The translations under genes and the position numbers were made by a program. This document shows positions 5,500-50,089 of a DNA stretch of 50,089 nucleotides, in pieces (position 1 is the stretch's first letter; the number at the start of each line of letters is the position of its first letter). The notes under the pieces were generated by a model that was given only the letters and a program-made list of their open reading frames with translations, ran no database searches and was not told where the DNA came from. This stretch comes from a bacterium (GTDB lineage: Bacteria > Hydrothermota > 32-111): assembly GCA_050239825.1 (NCBI GenBank), contig JBFXGO010000012.1, forward strand, positions 1-50,089, in the 5' to 3' direction.

Positions 5500-6633
5500 A
5501 TGATTGAATTAATGAAGACATTTTATACATATACGGGCTTTGCCAATTTCGATTACAGATATCTTATAATGATAGCTGTATCAATGTTCTTTATATACCT
5601 TGCAGTCGCAAAAGAGTATGAACCGATGCTTCTTCTTCCAATAGGATTTGGAATACTTATCGGCAACATACCAATGCTCATTGGTCTGAAGGTCGGAATC
5701 TACGAACCCGGGTCGGTTTTAAACTATCTTTACTTTGGAGTGATAAACGGGCTCTATCCGCCTCTTATCTTCATGGGTATAGGAGCTATGACGGATTTTT
5801 CGACAATCTTATCAAATCCAAAGACAATTCTTCTGGGAGCCGCCGCGCAACTCGGAATATTCACAACATTCATTGCGGCATACTACCTTGGTTTCACTCC
5901 TGCTGAAGCCGGTTCGATAGGAATAATCGGAGGAGCGGACGGACCCACTGCAATATTTCTAACATCAAAACTGGCTCCTCACCTTATTGGTCCCATTGCG
6001 ATTGCGGCATACTCATACATGGCTCTTGTTCCTGTAATTCAGCCGCCTATTATGAATCTTCTTACTACTAAGAAGGAGAGGCTTATAAGGATGAAGAAAC
6101 CGAGAACAGTAAAAAAAATTGAGAAGATTTTGTTTCCGATTTTTGCTTTTACTGTTTCCGCATTCATAACACCTGCCGCAATTCCTCTTCTTGGAATGCT
6201 TTTCATGGGCAATATTCTAAGAGAGAGCGGAGTGACCAATCGTCTTGCCAAGACAGCCTCTAATGCTCTCATTGATATTTGCACCATCATGATAGGGCTT
6301 ACAGTCGGAGCATCAACTCAGGCAAATGTCTTTTTGACATGGTCATCTATAAAAATATTCATACTCGGTTGCGCCGCTTTTGCATTTTCCACTTTCGGAG
6401 GAATTCTGTTTGCAAAACTCATGAATCTCTTCCTCAAAACCGAAGACAAGATAAATCCTCTTATTGGTTCTGCAGGTGTCTCTGCAGTTCCTGATGCGGC
6501 GAGAGTGTCTGAGATGGTGGGAAGACAGAATGACCCCAACAACCACTTGTTGATGCATGCAATGGGTCCTAATGTTGCGGGAGTGATAGGTTCCGCGATT
6601 GCCGCCGGGATACTTCTCTCATTCTTCGGATAA
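5500..6633 (+). CDS. mmdB: Na+-translocating decarboxylase beta subunit (OadB/MmdB family)
   Basis: EPMLLLPIGFG, IGIIGGADGPTAIF, HAMGPNVAGVIGSA; multiple transmembrane helices. Confidence 0.95.
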   Translation: MIELMKTFYTYTGFANFDYRYLIMIAVSMFFIYLAVAKEYEPMLLLPIGFGILIGNIPMLIGLKVGIYEPGSVLNYLYFGVINGLYPPLIFMGIGAMTDFSTILSNPKTILLGAAAQLGIFTTFIAAYYLGFTPAEAGSIGIIGGADGPTAIFLTSKLAPHLIGPIAIAAYSYMALVPVIQPPIMNLLTTKKERLIRMKKPRTVKKIEKILFPIFAFTVSAFITPAAIPLLGMLFMGNILRESGVTNRLAKTASNALIDICTIMIGLTVGASTQANVFLTWSSIKIFILGCAAFAFSTFGGILFAKLMNLFLKTEDKINPLIGSAGVSAVPDAARVSEMVGRQNDPNNHLLMHAMGPNVAGVIGSAIAAGILLSFFG

Positions 6634-6660
6634 AAGAATTACTTGAATTTGATTTTTTTG

Positions 6661-6688
6661 GGGCGGACACTCTTGTTCGCCCTTTTTT
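6661..6688 (+). terminator. Intrinsic terminator of the mmd operon
   Basis: gggcggaca-ctct-tgttcgccc followed by T6. Confidence 0.85.
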
Positions 6689-6721
6689 ATTTTACACCAT
6701 GTCTTTTGCCCTTTTTTGGTG

Positions 6722-7334
6722 AAAAGGTAAAAAGATAAGAAGGTAAAACAATGGGGAGATTCCTTGTAAAGACAAAATCTTACTCAACCGTGTCACCCTG
6801 AACGCCTCTATGGTTATGACTATCGTGAAGGGTCTATCATTTTATTGTTAATTAATTATTGAAAATTGTTTGGGGGGCTGCACGTGGGTGTAGCGTCGGC
6901 TCACACACTCCGCTTCGCCGCTTTATCAAGATGGGTTAGCGTAGCAAGGGGTCGCCCACTTGATGGGCGTCTTCGCGGAGCGTCCTCGCCGACTTGTAGC
7001 TTTCACTTTCAATAAGTTATTTAATTGATTGTTGCAGTGGGGACACACCGAAGGAATGTCCCCACATTGGCGAGGGTGTAATGTGCGCGAACGCACATGA
7101 TAGAGGTATCGGGTTGCACCAGAACTTTGTGAAGATTACTGTAAAGAATAAATATTACTCAGCTCCGCGTATTAAGCTCATGGCACACGGCACATGGCTC
7201 AAGGCTGATTTAGTGGCTGCACTGGAATTTTTCCTCGGAACTGTAAAGGCAAAATCTTACTCAACTCACTGTATTGAATTTAAACTCTTATCCAGCACTC
7301 TTTTACCTTTTACCTTTTAACTTTGTAACTTTAC
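6722..7334. repeat. Composite non-coding repeat cassette (inverted AAAAGGTA-type arrays at both ends, three 24-bp direct repeats, four hairpins, heptamer array)
   Basis: Arrays at 6722-6745 and 7301-7334 in opposite orientation; TGTAAAGnnnAAATnTTACTCAnC at 6765, 7140 and 7242; hairpins at 6792-6836, 6856-7015, 7037-7065 and 7081-7098; heptamers at 7174-7205. Confidence 0.8.
6856..7015 (+). ncRNA. Candidate rod-like structured RNA or MITE-like element, family unknown
   Basis: Nested stems ttattgaaa/tttcaataa, gctgca/tgtagc, gtcggc/gccgac, ctccgc/gcggag, tatcaag-a-tggg/ccca-cttgatg; GC-rich core within AT-rich flanks. Confidence 0.45.
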
Positions 7335-7377
7335 ATATTGCTCTTGTCATTTTGCATACTTTGTTTATAATAAAAAT

Positions 7378-8757
7378 ATGGAATATAAATCTATTAAAGG
7401 GCTCAGGTATTTTCTATTCGTGTTTCTGGGTCTTCTTATAGTTGCGGATATTATCGCATATTTTGTTTTTGTTAACATTATAAAAAGCAGTGGTGAAGAG
7501 TATAAGAATGACAGATACTCAACTGTGAATTCTTTTATAGAGTCAACAAAAAAAAGGTTTGACTTATACTCAAATTCCATCGATTTCATAAACAAAGAGC
7601 AGGATATAATAAGAAAGAGCATAAGCGAGAGAAATGTCTATTCATACTATTTAACAGATTCAACTCTCTTTCCCATTATAGTTTCAAAATCATTCAAATT
7701 TGACCAAAAGTATATCCGCAATTTCTTCATGCCGATTTTAAAGGATAATCTTTCAATGAGATACTTTATAGATAATTATGAGATATATTCATTCAAAATA
7801 GAGAATAAAAACAGAAATGTTATTTTTGCGGTCTTTGCATTTGAGACGGGTAGCGGATATATGAATAGAATCATGCTCTACTTTTTCATTTACCGCACAA
7901 TAATCCTTATTTTTATACTCATTTTCTCTGCTTTCCTGTTATTTTCAATAGAGAAACCTTTAAGAAGTATTTCGAACATTGCTCAATCTTTAAAAATCAG
8001 AATAAATCCGAATGATCAGGGAAATATTGTTAAGGTTTTCAGCGACTCAATGGAGGAGATTCTTAAAAAACAGAGGGAAGATGAGGATGCGATGGATGCC
8101 CTTTTAATAAAATACAAAAAGATGGAGGATGATTTTCTCTCCAAAGAGGGGCTTCTGAAATTGTCGGAGATAACAAACGGCATAGCGCATCAGCTGAATA
8201 ATCAGCTGGGAGGAATAACCGGACTAATGCAGGCGGCGGAAAGGTCTAATGATGTTTCCCTTTACAGAGAGGCATATAATCAACTTAAAGTGCTCAGCGA
8301 CTTTACAAAAAAATTTCTGGAATTTGCAGGAAGCACAAAACCCTATTTTTCTGATGTCGACATTGCAGAGGTTGTTGAGAGAACTGCATTGAGGCATGAA
8401 GTGAGTATTAAAGGCAATTTGAATGGAACAATAGTAAAATCAGACAATCATCTTTTAGAACAGATTTTTATCAATCTGTTTGACAATATTTCAAAATATT
8501 CAAAAAAAAGAGAGGCAGATGTTGAGTTAAGAGAGATTCCCAATAAAATAATATTAAAGGTGACTGATGGTGGAGAAGGTTACCCTGAGAGTGTTTTAAA
8601 GAATCTATACAATCCTTTTTCAGAGACATCCCACGGCTATGGCCTTGGAATACCAACTGTGGTGAAACTTGCGTCAATTTTGAATCATGCTGTTGAATTC
8701 AGGAATGAAGATAAAAGGGGAGTCTTTGAAATTACTTTTATAAAAGAGGTTGAATAA
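7378..8757 (+). CDS. Membrane sensor histidine kinase
   Basis: Two transmembrane helices; H-box IAHQLNN, N-box QIFINLFDN, DGGEG and GYGLG. Confidence 0.9.
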   Translation: MEYKSIKGLRYFLFVFLGLLIVADIIAYFVFVNIIKSSGEEYKNDRYSTVNSFIESTKKRFDLYSNSIDFINKEQDIIRKSISERNVYSYYLTDSTLFPIIVSKSFKFDQKYIRNFFMPILKDNLSMRYFIDNYEIYSFKIENKNRNVIFAVFAFETGSGYMNRIMLYFFIYRTIILIFILIFSAFLLFSIEKPLRSISNIAQSLKIRINPNDQGNIVKVFSDSMEEILKKQREDEDAMDALLIKYKKMEDDFLSKEGLLKLSEITNGIAHQLNNQLGGITGLMQAAERSNDVSLYREAYNQLKVLSDFTKKFLEFAGSTKPYFSDVDIAEVVERTALRHEVSIKGNLNGTIVKSDNHLLEQIFINLFDNISKYSKKREADVELREIPNKIILKVTDGGEGYPESVLKNLYNPFSETSHGYGLGIPTVVKLASILNHAVEFRNEDKRGVFEITFIKEVE

Positions 8758-8759
8758 TC

Positions 8760-10043
8760 GTGAGTAGAATTCACATAGTGGAGGATAACTCATCATTCAA
8801 GCTCTTTCTTAAAGAAGCTTTAAAAGAGTACGGAGAATTATGTTTTTCAGGCACTCTGTTCGACGCAAGAAAAAGAATATCATCCGAAACATTTGACCTG
8901 CATCTTCTTGACATGCGTCTTCCCGACGGAAGCGGCATGGAATTGCTGGATTTGTTGAACAGCACAAATGAAAAACCGAAGGTGGTTGTTCTGACAGCCT
9001 ATGGCGACATACCGCTGGCGATTGAAGCAGTAAGAAAGGGAGCATTGGATTTCTGGCAGAAGCCGATTGATTATGATGTCTTACGAGATAAGGTCGGAAA
9101 GATACTTGTTTCAAGGGACTACTCTGATTTGAAAAATTCAATTATCGGACATTCTGAGACAATTATCAAAGTGAGAAGCGATATAGAAAGGCTATCCGAA
9201 ACAGATATAAATGTTATGATTACCGGTCCGTCGGGAACCGGCAAGGAACTTGTGGCAAAGACAATTCATGAGCATTCATCAAGAAGAGAAAATCCTTTTG
9301 TGAGGATAGATTTCAGCACAATTCCTTCCGAGCTTGTGGAGAGCGAGCTATTCGGCGCTCTTAAAGGCGCATATACAGGCGCTTCTGAGAACAGGGATGG
9401 CAGATTGAAGAGCGCGGACAAGGGGACCATATTCTTTGATAACATAGACGAAGCGGATATGAAAACACAGGCGCGTCTTTTAAGATTTGTGCAGGAAAAA
9501 TCTTTTTACCCTCTCGGTTCAAGCAGGGAAGTAAAGGTAGATGCGAGAATAATATCTTCTGCGTCTGAGAGTATAAACAAACTTTTGCAGTCAAATGCGA
9601 TGCGCGAGGACCTTCTTTTCAGATTGAATGTGTATGTTATCAAACTCAATCCGATTGTTGAAAGGCGGGAGGATATAGAAGAGATTGCCAGACACTATAT
9701 TACTATTATTTCAGAAAGAATTCAGAGACCCTCGGATATTTTCACTTCGGAAGTTGTATTGGCGATGAAAAACTTTGACTGGAACGGGAATGAAAGAGAG
9801 ATAATCAATTTCATAGAGAGGTCGCTTCTTTCGGGAAAAGTTGATTTTGAGGATGAGAAAAGCTGTTTATCAAGCGGGTCCTTGAAGTCAAGGTTGAAAA
9901 CAGTAAAACAGGAATATGAAAAGAAAGAGATAATGAATGCCTTGAAGACAGCGCACGGCAATAAAAGCGAAGCGGCAAGAATGCTCGGGATAAGCTATAA
10001 GAACCTGCTCGACAAAATAAAGGAGTACGGGATTGAAGAATGA
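8760..10043 (+). CDS. NtrC-family sigma54-interacting response regulator
   Basis: Receiver domain (LLDMRLPD), GPSGTGKE, SELFG..GAYTGA, Fis-type HTH. Confidence 0.92.
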   Translation: MSRIHIVEDNSSFKLFLKEALKEYGELCFSGTLFDARKRISSETFDLHLLDMRLPDGSGMELLDLLNSTNEKPKVVVLTAYGDIPLAIEAVRKGALDFWQKPIDYDVLRDKVGKILVSRDYSDLKNSIIGHSETIIKVRSDIERLSETDINVMITGPSGTGKELVAKTIHEHSSRRENPFVRIDFSTIPSELVESELFGALKGAYTGASENRDGRLKSADKGTIFFDNIDEADMKTQARLLRFVQEKSFYPLGSSREVKVDARIISSASESINKLLQSNAMREDLLFRLNVYVIKLNPIVERREDIEEIARHYITIISERIQRPSDIFTSEVVLAMKNFDWNGNEREIINFIERSLLSGKVDFEDEKSCLSSGSLKSRLKTVKQEYEKKEIMNALKTAHGNKSEAARMLGISYKNLLDKIKEYGIEE

Positions 10044-47083: not shown

Positions 47084-47278
47084 ATGAAAATAAGAAGCAT
47101 CATAAAGTTAATTGAAAAAGACGGATGGTATTTAGTTGCGACAAAAGGAAGTCACAGGCAATACAAACATCCTATAAAAGTGGGCAGAGTAACAATTGCC
47201 GGTCATCCAAATGATGACATTGCTCCCGGTACTCTAAACAGTATTTTAAAGCAAGCGAAATTAAAGGAGGATAAATAG
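47084..47278 (+). CDS. hicA: HicA toxin
   Basis: DGW...KGSHRQYKHP...GTLNSILKQA. Confidence 0.93.
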   Translation: MKIRSIIKLIEKDGWYLVATKGSHRQYKHPIKVGRVTIAGHPNDDIAPGTLNSILKQAKLKEDK

Positions 47279-47279
47279 A

Positions 47280-47492
47280 ATGCACCGATTTTTAATAGTT
47301 ATAGAAAAAGCAAATGGGAATTATTCCGCATATTCTCCAGATCTGCCGGGATGCATAGCTACCGGCACAACAAGAAAAAAAGCAGAGAAGAATATGCATG
47401 AGGCGATTGAAATGCATTTGCAGGGCATAAGAGAAGATGGTCTGTCAATTCCGCAGTCAACCGCCATAGCCGAATATGTTGCAGTAAAATAG
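47280..47492 (+). CDS. hicB: HicB antitoxin, short form
   Basis: YSAYSPDLPGCIATG...EAIEMHL. Confidence 0.92.
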   Translation: MHRFLIVIEKANGNYSAYSPDLPGCIATGTTRKKAEKNMHEAIEMHLQGIREDGLSIPQSTAIAEYVAVK

Positions 47493-47623: not shown

Positions 47624-47650
47624 CAGATAAACAATTTGGAGGTAAAGGGA

Positions 47651-50089
47651 ATGAAGAACATATTTAAATTTCACAAGCATACCAGCATACCAACCCACCT
47701 GCGTACTAATATTTCAGTCATTCTGAAGTCCGCAGTAGTTACCTCTATCCTGAAGAATCTATCAAAGCGTACCAGCCAACCAGCTAACAAGCATACGAAT
47801 TTTGTCATTCTGAAGTCCGCAGTAGTTACCTCTATCCTGAAGAATCTATCAAAGCGTACCAGCCAACCAGCATACCAGCGAACGATCTTACTTCTCTCCT
47901 TGCTGTTCGGATTCGTGCTGTTGAATGCGCAGATGGTAGGGGAGCTTGGCAGATGGGAATACGGACCGACAGAGGCGATAGCAATAAAGGGAAATACAGC
48001 ATATATAAGTAGTGGAAGCTACTTATGGGTAATGGATATAAGCAATGAAAGCAACCCGAGATTAATAAGTGAAATGAAACTTGAGAACTATATACATTAC
48101 ATCAGAAGGATAGGGAATTACTTGTATGTGAGCAAGAATGATACATTGCTGAATATCTATGATATACATACAGATACAATACCAGTTTTGGTGAACCAGA
48201 TAGAAGGAGAGGATTCGGATTTTCCATGGAAAGAGATAATTTATACCGGAAATACTCTATATATTAGTGGATATTTCAATCGACAGTATTTTATAAACGA
48301 TACAATAAGTCCTACATTTACAAGGATAGTCGGTTTTACAAGAGATATAAATAATGATTCAACTGTATTAGTAGGAACAATGCAAGAAGATAGGGAGATA
48401 AGGGTATATGATCTAACCCAAATTGGTGATATATACGATCAAACAGATGATTACTACACAACAGAGAAGATAAGAGGAATAAGAGTAACCTACCCCTATG
48501 TTTACTTTGGCTATGGGAGCCAGGGGGTAGGAATAATGGATATAAGCAACTTGTATGATATAAAACTAAAGAAGACAGTGGCGACAGGCGGCAATACATA
48601 CGATGTGGAGATGATAGAGGAAACATTGCTTATAGCGGCGAGGGGATTAAATGGAATAGGGATATATGATGTAGAGGATGATACGCTATTAACGGAGATA
48701 GGAGCCTGCGAGACAAACGGCTATACATACGAATTGGAGGTAATAGGGAATAGATTGTATGCAGGAGCGAGAAGCGGCGGCTTAATCATAGTGGATATAA
48801 CAGATAAGAGCAACCCCACGGTGGTTGGTGAGTATAGAGGGTATGGAGAATGCAGGAGGATGACAATAGAGGGAGACAGGATGTATGTAGCGAGCGGGGA
48901 CGGTGGAGTAATGATAATGGATATAACTGACAGGGAGAATCCTGAAGTAATAAGCCAGTGCTGGACAAGGAATATAGGGGAAGATGTGGTAAAAGGCGGA
49001 GATTATCTTTATGTAGCAGACGGAGACAGCGGGTTAACAGTGGTAGATATCAGTGATGAAGATAATCCGAGTGTAGTGGCAGGAATTCCGACAGGATGTT
49101 ACGGAAGCTTTGCCGGTATATATGATAATGTGTGCATGATAGGCGGAAGAAGATTTTACTTATCTGGTGATACAGCGAAAGACGGAATAGGATTAATTGA
49201 TATAAGCACACCATCAAATCCTATTAAAGAAAACGAAGTAATGGATGGACATTCATATATATCTTTTCAATTGGATGACACAATAATGTATTGTGTGGGT
49301 GATGCAGGGGCATATGCGAGATATGAGATATGGAATATAAAAAATAGTGCGGTTCCAGTGTTAGAAGACAGCATAATGATATATTTAGGTAGTTATACGT
49401 CAGTAGCAGGAAAAGACACTATATCGGTGACAAATTATTTAGATACTTTGCTGTTTTATAATGTAAAAGACCTAAACAATGCCACTTTAATAAAGAGAAT
49501 ACAAAGTCCTGGCGGACAAACTGAAATGTTGATAGATAATGATGTATTATATACTCTCAATGGACAACCTTGGATGGTGATGTATGATATAAGCAATTTA
49601 CCAACAGTAGATACAATAGCAATAGAAACATTAAGAGTGGAAGCTTATGATATAAACAAACAGAATGAATATATATATACCACCCACAACCAATATGGTT
49701 TAAGCATATACGGGTTCGATATGACCCCGCCGAGTAAAATAACACTGATAGAGCCACAGGATGGAGACACAGCATATAATAACAGCATGGAAGTAACATG
49801 GCATAAATCAACAGACACAGGAGTGGGAATAGACAGGTATGAGGTGTATGTGAATGGGATAGAAGAGGGAGAGACAACAGATACGAGTATTACAGTAAAT
49901 ACAACATCAACAGGGACACGGAATGTGTGGGTAAAGGTGTATGACAGAGTGGGTAACAGCAGTTACTCAGATACGAATGCAGTGTATTTGCTTACAGGGA
50001 TAGAGGATGGAAGTAAAACAAAGGGAATAGAAAAGGAGCTGACGATAAAGACAACACTAAATAGGATAAGCGTATATAATGGAACAACA
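47651..50089 (+). CDS. 3'-truncated secreted LVIVD-repeat protein with Ig/FN3-like domain and probable CTD (absent from ORF track)
   Basis: Hand translation from ATG 47651 finds no stop before the window end; YLYVADGDSGLTVVDISDEDNP-type repeats; DMTPP...VKVYDRVGN; TGIED linker. Confidence 0.9.
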   Translation, partial: MKNIFKFHKHTSIPTHLRTNISVILKSAVVTSILKNLSKRTSQPANKHTNFVILKSAVVTSILKNLSKRTSQPAYQRTILLLSLLFGFVLLNAQMVGELGRWEYGPTEAIAIKGNTAYISSGSYLWVMDISNESNPRLISEMKLENYIHYIRRIGNYLYVSKNDTLLNIYDIHTDTIPVLVNQIEGEDSDFPWKEIIYTGNTLYISGYFNRQYFINDTISPTFTRIVGFTRDINNDSTVLVGTMQEDREIRVYDLTQIGDIYDQTDDYYTTEKIRGIRVTYPYVYFGYGSQGVGIMDISNLYDIKLKKTVATGGNTYDVEMIEETLLIAARGLNGIGIYDVEDDTLLTEIGACETNGYTYELEVIGNRLYAGARSGGLIIVDITDKSNPTVVGEYRGYGECRRMTIEGDRMYVASGDGGVMIMDITDRENPEVISQCWTRNIGEDVVKGGDYLYVADGDSGLTVVDISDEDNPSVVAGIPTGCYGSFAGIYDNVCMIGGRRFYLSGDTAKDGIGLIDISTPSNPIKENEVMDGHSYISFQLDDTIMYCVGDAGAYARYEIWNIKNSAVPVLEDSIMIYLGSYTSVAGKDTISVTNYLDTLLFYNVKDLNNATLIKRIQSPGGQTEMLIDNDVLYTLNGQPWMVMYDISNLPTVDTIAIETLRVEAYDINKQNEYIYTTHNQYGLSIYGFDMTPPSKITLIEPQDGDTAYNNSMEVTWHKSTDTGVGIDRYEVYVNGIEEGETTDTSITVNTTSTGTRNVWVKVYDRVGNSSYSDTNAVYLLTGIEDGSKTKGIEKELTIKTTLNRISVYNGTT
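47717..47871 (+). repeat. In-frame tandem duplication (68 identical bp, period 87 bp) of a REP-like hairpin plus octamers
   Basis: 47717-47784 is identical to 47804-47871. Confidence 0.95.

Follow-up and report, generated by a model that had tools for sequence, protein, structure and literature searches.

Mosaic arrays of short non-coding repeats, probably of the BIME/NIME kind, in an intergenic region of a Hydrothermota bacterium

Introduction

What is the non-coding DNA that fills the gap between two operons in a bacterium of the Hydrothermota (GTDB lineage 32-111), and how could it have come to lie there? In this study, we analyzed a window of 50,089 nucleotides (assembly GCA_050239825.1, contig JBFXGO010000012.1, positions 1 to 50,089 of the forward strand; positions without a contig handle refer to this window), in which the 744-bp intergenic gap between an mmdB-like gene and a histidine kinase gene holds an array of short repeats. 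The initial annotation described positions 6722-7334 as a composite cassette with inverted octamer ends, enclosing hairpin modules separated by 24-bp direct repeats, and offered two readings: an accreting array of non-coding cassettes joined at recombinase-like sites, or a landing pad for several repeat families. We consider it likely that this DNA, placed between a terminator and a promoter, forms a single array of a non-coding, genus-level repeat with the mosaic structure of BIMEs and NIMEs.

Organization of the locus

The upstream neighbor (5500-6633), on the forward strand like all features below unless stated otherwise, encodes the beta subunit of a sodium ion-translocating decarboxylase (mmdB-like; TIGR01109, 494 bits against a cut-off of 191), and an intrinsic-terminator-like hairpin (6660-6683) with a T-run lies 3' of its operon (6660-6693 in all; z -5.2). 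Downstream lie a sensor histidine kinase (7378-8757), which scored below the curated cut-offs of named families, and an NtrC-type regulator (8760-10043), whose best matches by E-value were ntrC-like. A sigma-70-like promoter of the kinase gene (7344-7371) showed 11 of 12 consensus matches and was conserved in four aligned sequences.

Between these landmarks the modules read S-A-H-F-R-T/P1-S-B-(core missing)-P3-S-E-heptamer tract. First, the 24-mer repeat, here called linker S, occurs at 6765-6788, 7140-7163 and 7242-7265, and the second and third copies are 83% and 96% identical to the first, which has 15 exact copies in the genome. The spacers given for these repeats (351 and 78 bp) were correct, as was the GTAA-N10-TTAC dyad reported in each local copy and the motif common to the upstream sides of copies 2 and 3 (7112-7128 and 7215-7231). 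Second, the segment after copy 1 starts with module A (6791-6836), a TGTC-tagged long-loop hairpin of the NTS/SRM type with a weak fold (z -0.9), which an AT-rich linker visible in the sequence (6837-6885) connects to the core hairpin H (6886-7000). The core, with outer arms at 6895-6913 and 6975-6993 and a nested inner stem, is the most constant module. It is followed by the AT-rich linker F (7001-7035; 82 loose copies in the genome), the palindrome R (7037-7065), which starts with GGGGWSAS and takes the place of the left arm of the next hairpin, and the hairpin module T/P1 (7075-7139), which is the most frequent allele in its slot and directly preceded S in 62 of 104 S copies. Most of the folding proposed earlier was reproduced, with z -4.1 for 7037-7065 and z -3.0 for 7075-7120, whereas the core (6895-6993) is a weaker hairpin (z -1.5). 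Third, S copy 2 is followed by module B (7164-7214), which contains three heptamers (7182-7202) and was the module after S in 31 of 104 S copies. Here B abuts module P3 (7215-7241) at a short shared motif (7215-7222), and the usual intervening core is absent; this adjacency was found in 4 arrays of the genome, and we infer that it arose through deletion by microhomology at the shared motif. Finally, S copy 3 leads into module E with a pyrimidine-rich heptamer tract (7266-7335), which the initial annotation took for the right octamer end. No credible gene lies in the region, in agreement with the earlier reading, since its longest ORF (79 aa) crosses repeat modules. The Rfam scan that had been suggested gave a best score of 22 bits against a gathering score of 60, so that no known structured RNA family was recognized in the region.

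Genome-wide distribution of the arrays

A weight-matrix search of the genome for the 24-mer recovered 105 copies in 45 same-strand clusters, with recurrent modules between copies; none of the scores fell between 12 and 18 bits, which places the copies far beyond chance. A 25-nt variant of S contributed 41 further strict copies. Self-comparison of the genome revealed 47 arrays covering 42,599 bp (2.0% of the genome), of which 161 bp lay within ORFs of at least 150 aa. The longest perfect match of the present array elsewhere in the genome was 83 bp.

The arrays share a cyclic grammar, S - slot 1 (A, B, C or D) - core H - linker F - slot 2 - S, in which slot 2 is taken by any of three related hairpins and may also include palindrome R. 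Within a run, units of ~340 bp (median core spacing 338 bp, n = 54) follow each other head-to-tail on the same strand: of the strict copies, 95 of 96 H arms and all 41 S variants lay in the array orientation. All 96 strict copies of the 3' arm of the core were within arrays, as were 44 of 46 copies of palindrome R, and the 90 ungapped core copies comprised 88 distinct sequences. What had been described as different cassettes between the 24-mers are in fact recurrent modules of a genome-wide family, drawn from a limited set of hairpins and linkers that occurs in varying combinations, with a fixed cyclic order and few alleles per slot, in many non-coding intergenic copies.

This distribution bears on the refuting case named in the initial annotation, namely that the 24-mer is unique to this locus and serves as a binding site of the downstream NtrC-type regulator. 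The position of S upstream of the two-component operon would suit such a role, but 105 copies beside unrelated genes genome-wide exclude uniqueness, and S is absent from the kinase promoter region in G002, in L081/L082 and in the six family genomes that keep the kinase; a regulator site is thus the least credible of the explanations considered, with a negligible chance of being correct.

The same arrays allowed the proposed ends of the element to be judged. The supposed inverted octamer ends turned out to be an 8-periodic purine-rich tract (6722-6748) and a mainly 7-periodic pyrimidine tract (7299-7335). A local hairpin (6702-6735; feature 6702-6748, no strand assigned; z -3.4), which starts outside 6722-7334, has the purine tract as its right arm. 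One MITE-like element, bounded by imperfect inverted repeats and with insertions collected inside, would agree with the 72% complementarity of the two tracts over 25 nt and with array C6:5680-6799, where purine and pyrimidine tracts occupy the same ends. However, the left tract has its pairing partner close by (6702-6715), the two tracts repeat with different periods (8 versus 7), by eye they were found together in only 2 of the 47 arrays, and in the relative G002 a pyrimidine-type tract follows S inside tandem units. Moreover, no target-site duplication was seen around 6722 and 7334, the ends of the 47 arrays fall in many modules, and neither terminal inverted repeats nor a duplication common to copies was found. 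We therefore regard a single MITE as very unlikely, and the tracts are not termini of an element. By eye, a purine tract like that at 6722-6748 also precedes S in three other arrays (C3 55289, C6 5680 and C6 16066).

Several observations concern the surroundings of the arrays. A promoter-like site was present just 3' of 9 of 44 arrays and in 32 of 1347 control windows, which were so poorly matched that we give the difference no weight. Arrays on C28, C39, C42, C43, C44 and C48 adjoin genes for AbiEii/AbiEi, Fic, RhuM, AAA_14/DUF4143 and nucleotidyltransferase proteins, a hand-picked set. In the window itself, a B-type heptamer occurs on the reverse strand (173 and 2643) in the near-duplicate 3' ends of two genes (158-398 and 2628-2860) that encode a secretion-system C-terminal sorting domain, where coding sequence seems to have taken up repeat DNA.

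Linker S as a joint or a recombination site

Linker S is constant, joins slot 2 to slot 1 and is unstructured; it folded no better than shuffled sequences. It also acts as a hub, since five recurrent upstream classes and five downstream classes met at S in 16 of the 25 possible combinations among 85 of 104 copies. The earlier description of the 24-mer as a joint was thus well founded, and the question is what kind of joint it is.

One answer is that S is a site-specific recombination site and that the modules are non-coding cassettes which are inserted and excised there, in the manner of integrons or of the role that has been proposed for dRS3 of Neisseria (PMC1797815). Besides the hub itself, this explanation could draw on about 8 of 47 arrays that, by eye, start at S without any module before it, and on the variability of S positions 23-24, of which position 23 was weakly linked to its neighbors in 60 P1-S copies. 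Around the 5' edge of S, linkage in these copies also looked low (r2 ~0.1 from position -9 to +3), as the site-specific model would expect too. On the other hand, the dyad that is intact in the three local copies did not hold as a trait of the family: it was perfect in 39 of 104 copies, G2-C19 paired in 51 and T3-A18 in 68, and at most one copy was compensating. The length of the center of S varied as well (24 versus 25 nt), both within the genome and between congeners. The best integron integrase score was 94.7 bits (TIGR02249; cut-off 265) in a genome that is 99% complete, no tyrosine recombinase gene bordered an array, and the closest one lay 3.5 kb away. Array ends in many modules, and the single viral match to S, which had no array context, also speak against the model.

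In 28 full units from 18 arrays, r2 was 0.27 for distances below 15 nt and decayed smoothly to at most 0.07 for distances above 75 nt, and no drop specific to S was detected in them. The 60 P1-S copies had suggested that crossovers concentrate at the 5' edge of S, which was not reproduced in the 28-unit scan. Most site pairs in the 60 P1-S copies showed all four allele combinations. Core identity within arrays (0.934) slightly exceeded that between arrays (0.917), an excess reached in 0 of 500 permutations, and the nearest core copy was located in the same array for 25 of 75 cores. These similarities fit exchange among many loci together with some local homogenization. Taken together, a dyad that is neither conserved nor compensated, the absence of an integron integrase above the cut-off and of an S-specific linkage break weaken the recombinase-like sites of the initial annotation to the point that we consider them improbable. 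Judged from the sequences, S would instead be a joint between interchangeable modules, which looks like a joint because of shared homology between variable slots and not because of site-specific recombinase action.

Distribution in relatives and other genomes

Comparison of the mmdB-kinase gap with that of relatives, which had been suggested as a check, showed short, array-free gaps. In G002 the orthologous gap was ~150 bp, with terminator-like hairpin and promoter kept; it was ~130 bp in L081/L082, which are identical in the gap and probably represent one organism, and ~40 bp in six family-level genomes. Gene order at the locus differed in G001, G003 and G005. A different, diverged array preceded the same kinase gene in L083, where the upstream gene lay off the contig. 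Thus, presence and size of the array vary at orthologous loci between species, and its mobility may be inferred from these array-free gaps of other species only. Sequencing run X1, which may be the source sample, was identical to the locus over 5900-6682 and 7223-8200; none of its contigs crossed the array, the joints listed for it can stem from other arrays, and neither full nor empty alleles within the species were seen. Both the terminator-like hairpin (6660-6693) and the sigma-70-like promoter (7344-7371) are older than the array.

At the level of the phylum, the S pattern was found 98 times in the present genome (G000) and 10 times in G002 among 272 genomes, and once or twice in each of 11 other genomes. 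G001 had no match, and diverged S-like linkers occupied the same array position there. A GTDB-wide scan for exact S yielded 11 loci; for nine of them (all except L089 and L093), eight had no array context, four of these lying inside ORFs, and one was a full array. This array (L094:1100-1800) was located on a contig labeled as a Vulcanibacillus sp. MAG, was ~85% identical and had flanking genes with no close match in G000; either mis-binning or horizontal transfer might explain it.

Module order and hairpins were conserved across three congeners, which is an argument for regarding the units as domesticated functional elements (structured RNA, mRNA-stabilizing hairpins or sites for nucleoid proteins) under host selection. 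Linker F adds to this argument, since it often fits the IHF consensus: 46 of 183 genome matches lay in arrays, that is, in 2% of the genome. A single F allele accounts for 26 matching copies, and the genome contains two genes of the HU/IHF family. BIME-1 linkers carry IHF sites (PMC3333891). However, the IHF-like matches represent a single element in repeated copies and are not independent, the F copy at this locus has one mismatch, and the Rfam result offers no support. In addition, arrays are not retained at orthologous positions and lie in all orientations to flanking genes. We therefore consider domestication unlikely, although less so than insertion at recombinase sites.

Possible origin of the modules

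Several modules could be traced to the flanks of small genes in the same genome. First, module A was identical at 39 of 46 positions to the upstream flank of a GIY-YIG gene (G000:C27:46082-46390), a 102-aa ORF (PF01541, 57 bits) with inverted TGTC-tagged hairpins on both sides, which is the small single-domain arrangement of Ssn genes. This protein had no match in NCBIfam and only a weak UPF0213 match in a PDB search. The published SRM search pattern had 4 matches in the genome, none of which was in arrays or at the GIY-YIG gene, and module A fails it because of its longer loop; our own long-loop pattern had 52 matches, 42 of them in arrays. Module A may therefore be assigned to the Ssn system only partly. 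The cut that Ssn nucleases make in single-stranded DNA lies a few bases 5' of the tag, and inverted tagged hairpins flank their gene (PMC11893778). A further tandem repeat family (G000:C27:46361-46810; L025, L035) lies directly upstream of the GIY-YIG gene and extends to the contig end.

A second SRM-like repeat family is present in the window (47650-47880), with tandem TGTC/AGTC-tagged long-loop hairpins at 47716 and 47803 and CCAGCATA-type short repeats, and also on C44, C49 and C66. Two short adjacent genes at 47085-47492 resemble, by eye, a toxin-antitoxin pair of the HicA/HicB type.

Second, the heptamers of module B flank, in inverted orientation, a four-helix-bundle gene (G000:C49:7420-7779; TIGR02436); a literature search for heptamer-flanked four-helix-bundle genes found nothing. 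Third, four Y1 transposase genes (on C5, C14, C18 and C56; 259-301 aa) have the HYH motif, a conserved tyrosine and flanking TIRs. They scored 57-73 bits against NF047646 (cut-off 80), and a C-terminal HTH match was found in the one protein scanned in Pfam. Six arrays start with the TIR of the C5 gene, and arrays also contain the TIRs belonging to the C14, C18 and C56 genes, whereas the present locus has neither a Y1 gene nor a Y1 TIR. The motif GGGGWSAS, with which palindrome R starts, has been reported in TIRs of Y1 transposase genes (PMC3733652). Y1 genes were present in 12 of 13 family genomes, and six family-level genomes have no array at this site; thus, arrays cannot be predicted from the presence of a Y1 gene alone. 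By eye, the genes G000:C5:4330-5109 and C56:11012-11902 lie directly behind tRNA-like sequences. Inverted pairs of the C14 TIR were observed ~210 bp apart at C14:36255-36465, C28:13896-14106, C41:22136-22345 and C47:6392-6603 of G000, and ~120 bp apart at G000:C22:10781-10903; these are candidate non-autonomous TIRtron miniatures.

S and core H matched no flank in a BLAST comparison with 37 GIY-YIG and Y1 loci from G000 and family genomes, of which 6 gave no matching ORF for flank inspection and were still included in BLAST. The most abundant modules are therefore those without a known cognate enzyme. No PF13366 (GxxExxY) match was found. A link to retrons or DGRs was also considered and rejected, since the one reverse-transcriptase-like gene, a stand-alone ORF of 497 aa (G000:C17:33697-35190; PF00078, 47 bits) unrelated to the arrays, lies ~18 kb from the nearest array. 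On the whole, the alternative reading of the initial annotation, a landing pad of several repeat families, fared well, in that modules match the flanks of unrelated small genes and the array is absent from the gap of relatives.

Proposed explanation

Behind the observed copy number, polarity, grammar, recombinant alleles, shared flanks and absence from relatives, seeding and growth of the arrays probably proceeded by single-strand cutting, followed by rejoining or repair at the hairpins. Likely cutters would be the resident Ssn-like GIY-YIG nuclease (at module A), the TIR-flanked Y1 transposases, or both; cutting and rejoining by TnpA-REP on BIMEs has been demonstrated in vitro (PMC3333891). 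Ordinary homologous recombination or gene conversion among ~100 units would then scramble the arrays, with crossovers anywhere in shared sequence, and slot alleles and array ends would be absorbed from the ends of unrelated small selfish genes (GIY-YIG, Y1 transposases and the four-helix bundle). Against this explanation, module A is rarer than the core (45 versus 117 loose copies) and does not fit the SRM pattern, and the locus shows neither a Y1 TIR nor a target-site duplication.

A bolder reading, which seems unlikely to us, is that a genus-specific backbone (core and S) is cut by a factor of its own and, as a shared polarized scaffold, captures the ends of at least three unrelated classes of selfish genes; its units would move as single-stranded pieces by whichever enzyme is present, and S would be a joining signal. 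Such a scaffold would explain why neighboring units are barely more alike than distant ones. If it were true, the near-identical modules of L094 would reflect horizontal spread and not mis-binning, and several unrelated selfish systems would share one replicating non-coding scaffold. The preferred explanation, a mosaic repeat seeded by cutting at hairpins and reshuffled by homologous exchange, is the one that we compare with known systems below.

Comparison with known systems

Integron cassette arrays (attC/IntI) are serial gene cassettes in one orientation, with a self-complementary site and an integrase. The present arrays are similar in their serial segments, recurring separating site and single orientation, but no integrase, gene cassette or self-complementary paired site was found, and the arrays are scattered over ~47 places.

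With the BIME-2 and atypical BIMEs of E. coli (PMC3333891) the arrays have in common a mosaic structure in intergenic DNA, in which hairpins and linkers are arranged in tandem and the linkers have alternative alleles, a share of ~1-2% of the genome, Y1 transposase genes and an IHF-like motif in one linker. However, the GTAG-tagged inverted REP pairs of BIMEs are lacking here, the unit is much longer (~340 bp), and tandem copies at one locus are well conserved in BIMEs, whereas here they were hardly more similar than copies from different loci. The Y1 genes are TIR-flanked and the modules lie in direct order, which does not correspond to an E. coli-type BIME/REP-RAYT system.

TIRtrons, described for TIRYT (Y1 subclass 2.1; PMC3733652 and PMC6006769), likewise combine a Y1 gene, HYH and TIRs that recur as repeats, and the four Y1 genes (C5, C14, C18 and C56) resemble TIRYT subclass 2.1 of PMC6006769. 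In contrast with TIRtrons, TIRs are a minor component of the arrays and absent at this locus, and no Y1 gene was flanked by R, S or the core. The Ssn system (PMC11893778) shares the TGTC/CGTC-tagged hairpin that also flanks, inverted, a single-domain GIY-YIG gene of ~100 aa; the Ssn-type hairpin here differs in being an optional slot allele with a long loop outside the published SRM pattern. Finally, the neisserial NIMEs (dRS3/NTS and RS; PMC1797815) resemble the arrays in being long and intergenic and in the alternation of a short conserved motif with repeat families of greater length, but dRS3 is palindromic and S is not, and more than 100 RS families compare with about a dozen modules in fixed order here.

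On these comparisons, the arrays appear to work like NIME and BIME arrays, and by the tests applied they are not E. coli REP/RAYT elements, integrons or MITEs. The finding is a modest one, namely one more lineage-specific example of the known bacterial intergenic mosaic repeats. What the locus adds to them is a joint that was tested and looks like shared homology rather than a recombinase site, and several modules traceable to the flanks of nuclease and transposase genes in the same genome, which provide named candidate enzyme-substrate pairs for how such repeats are made and spread.
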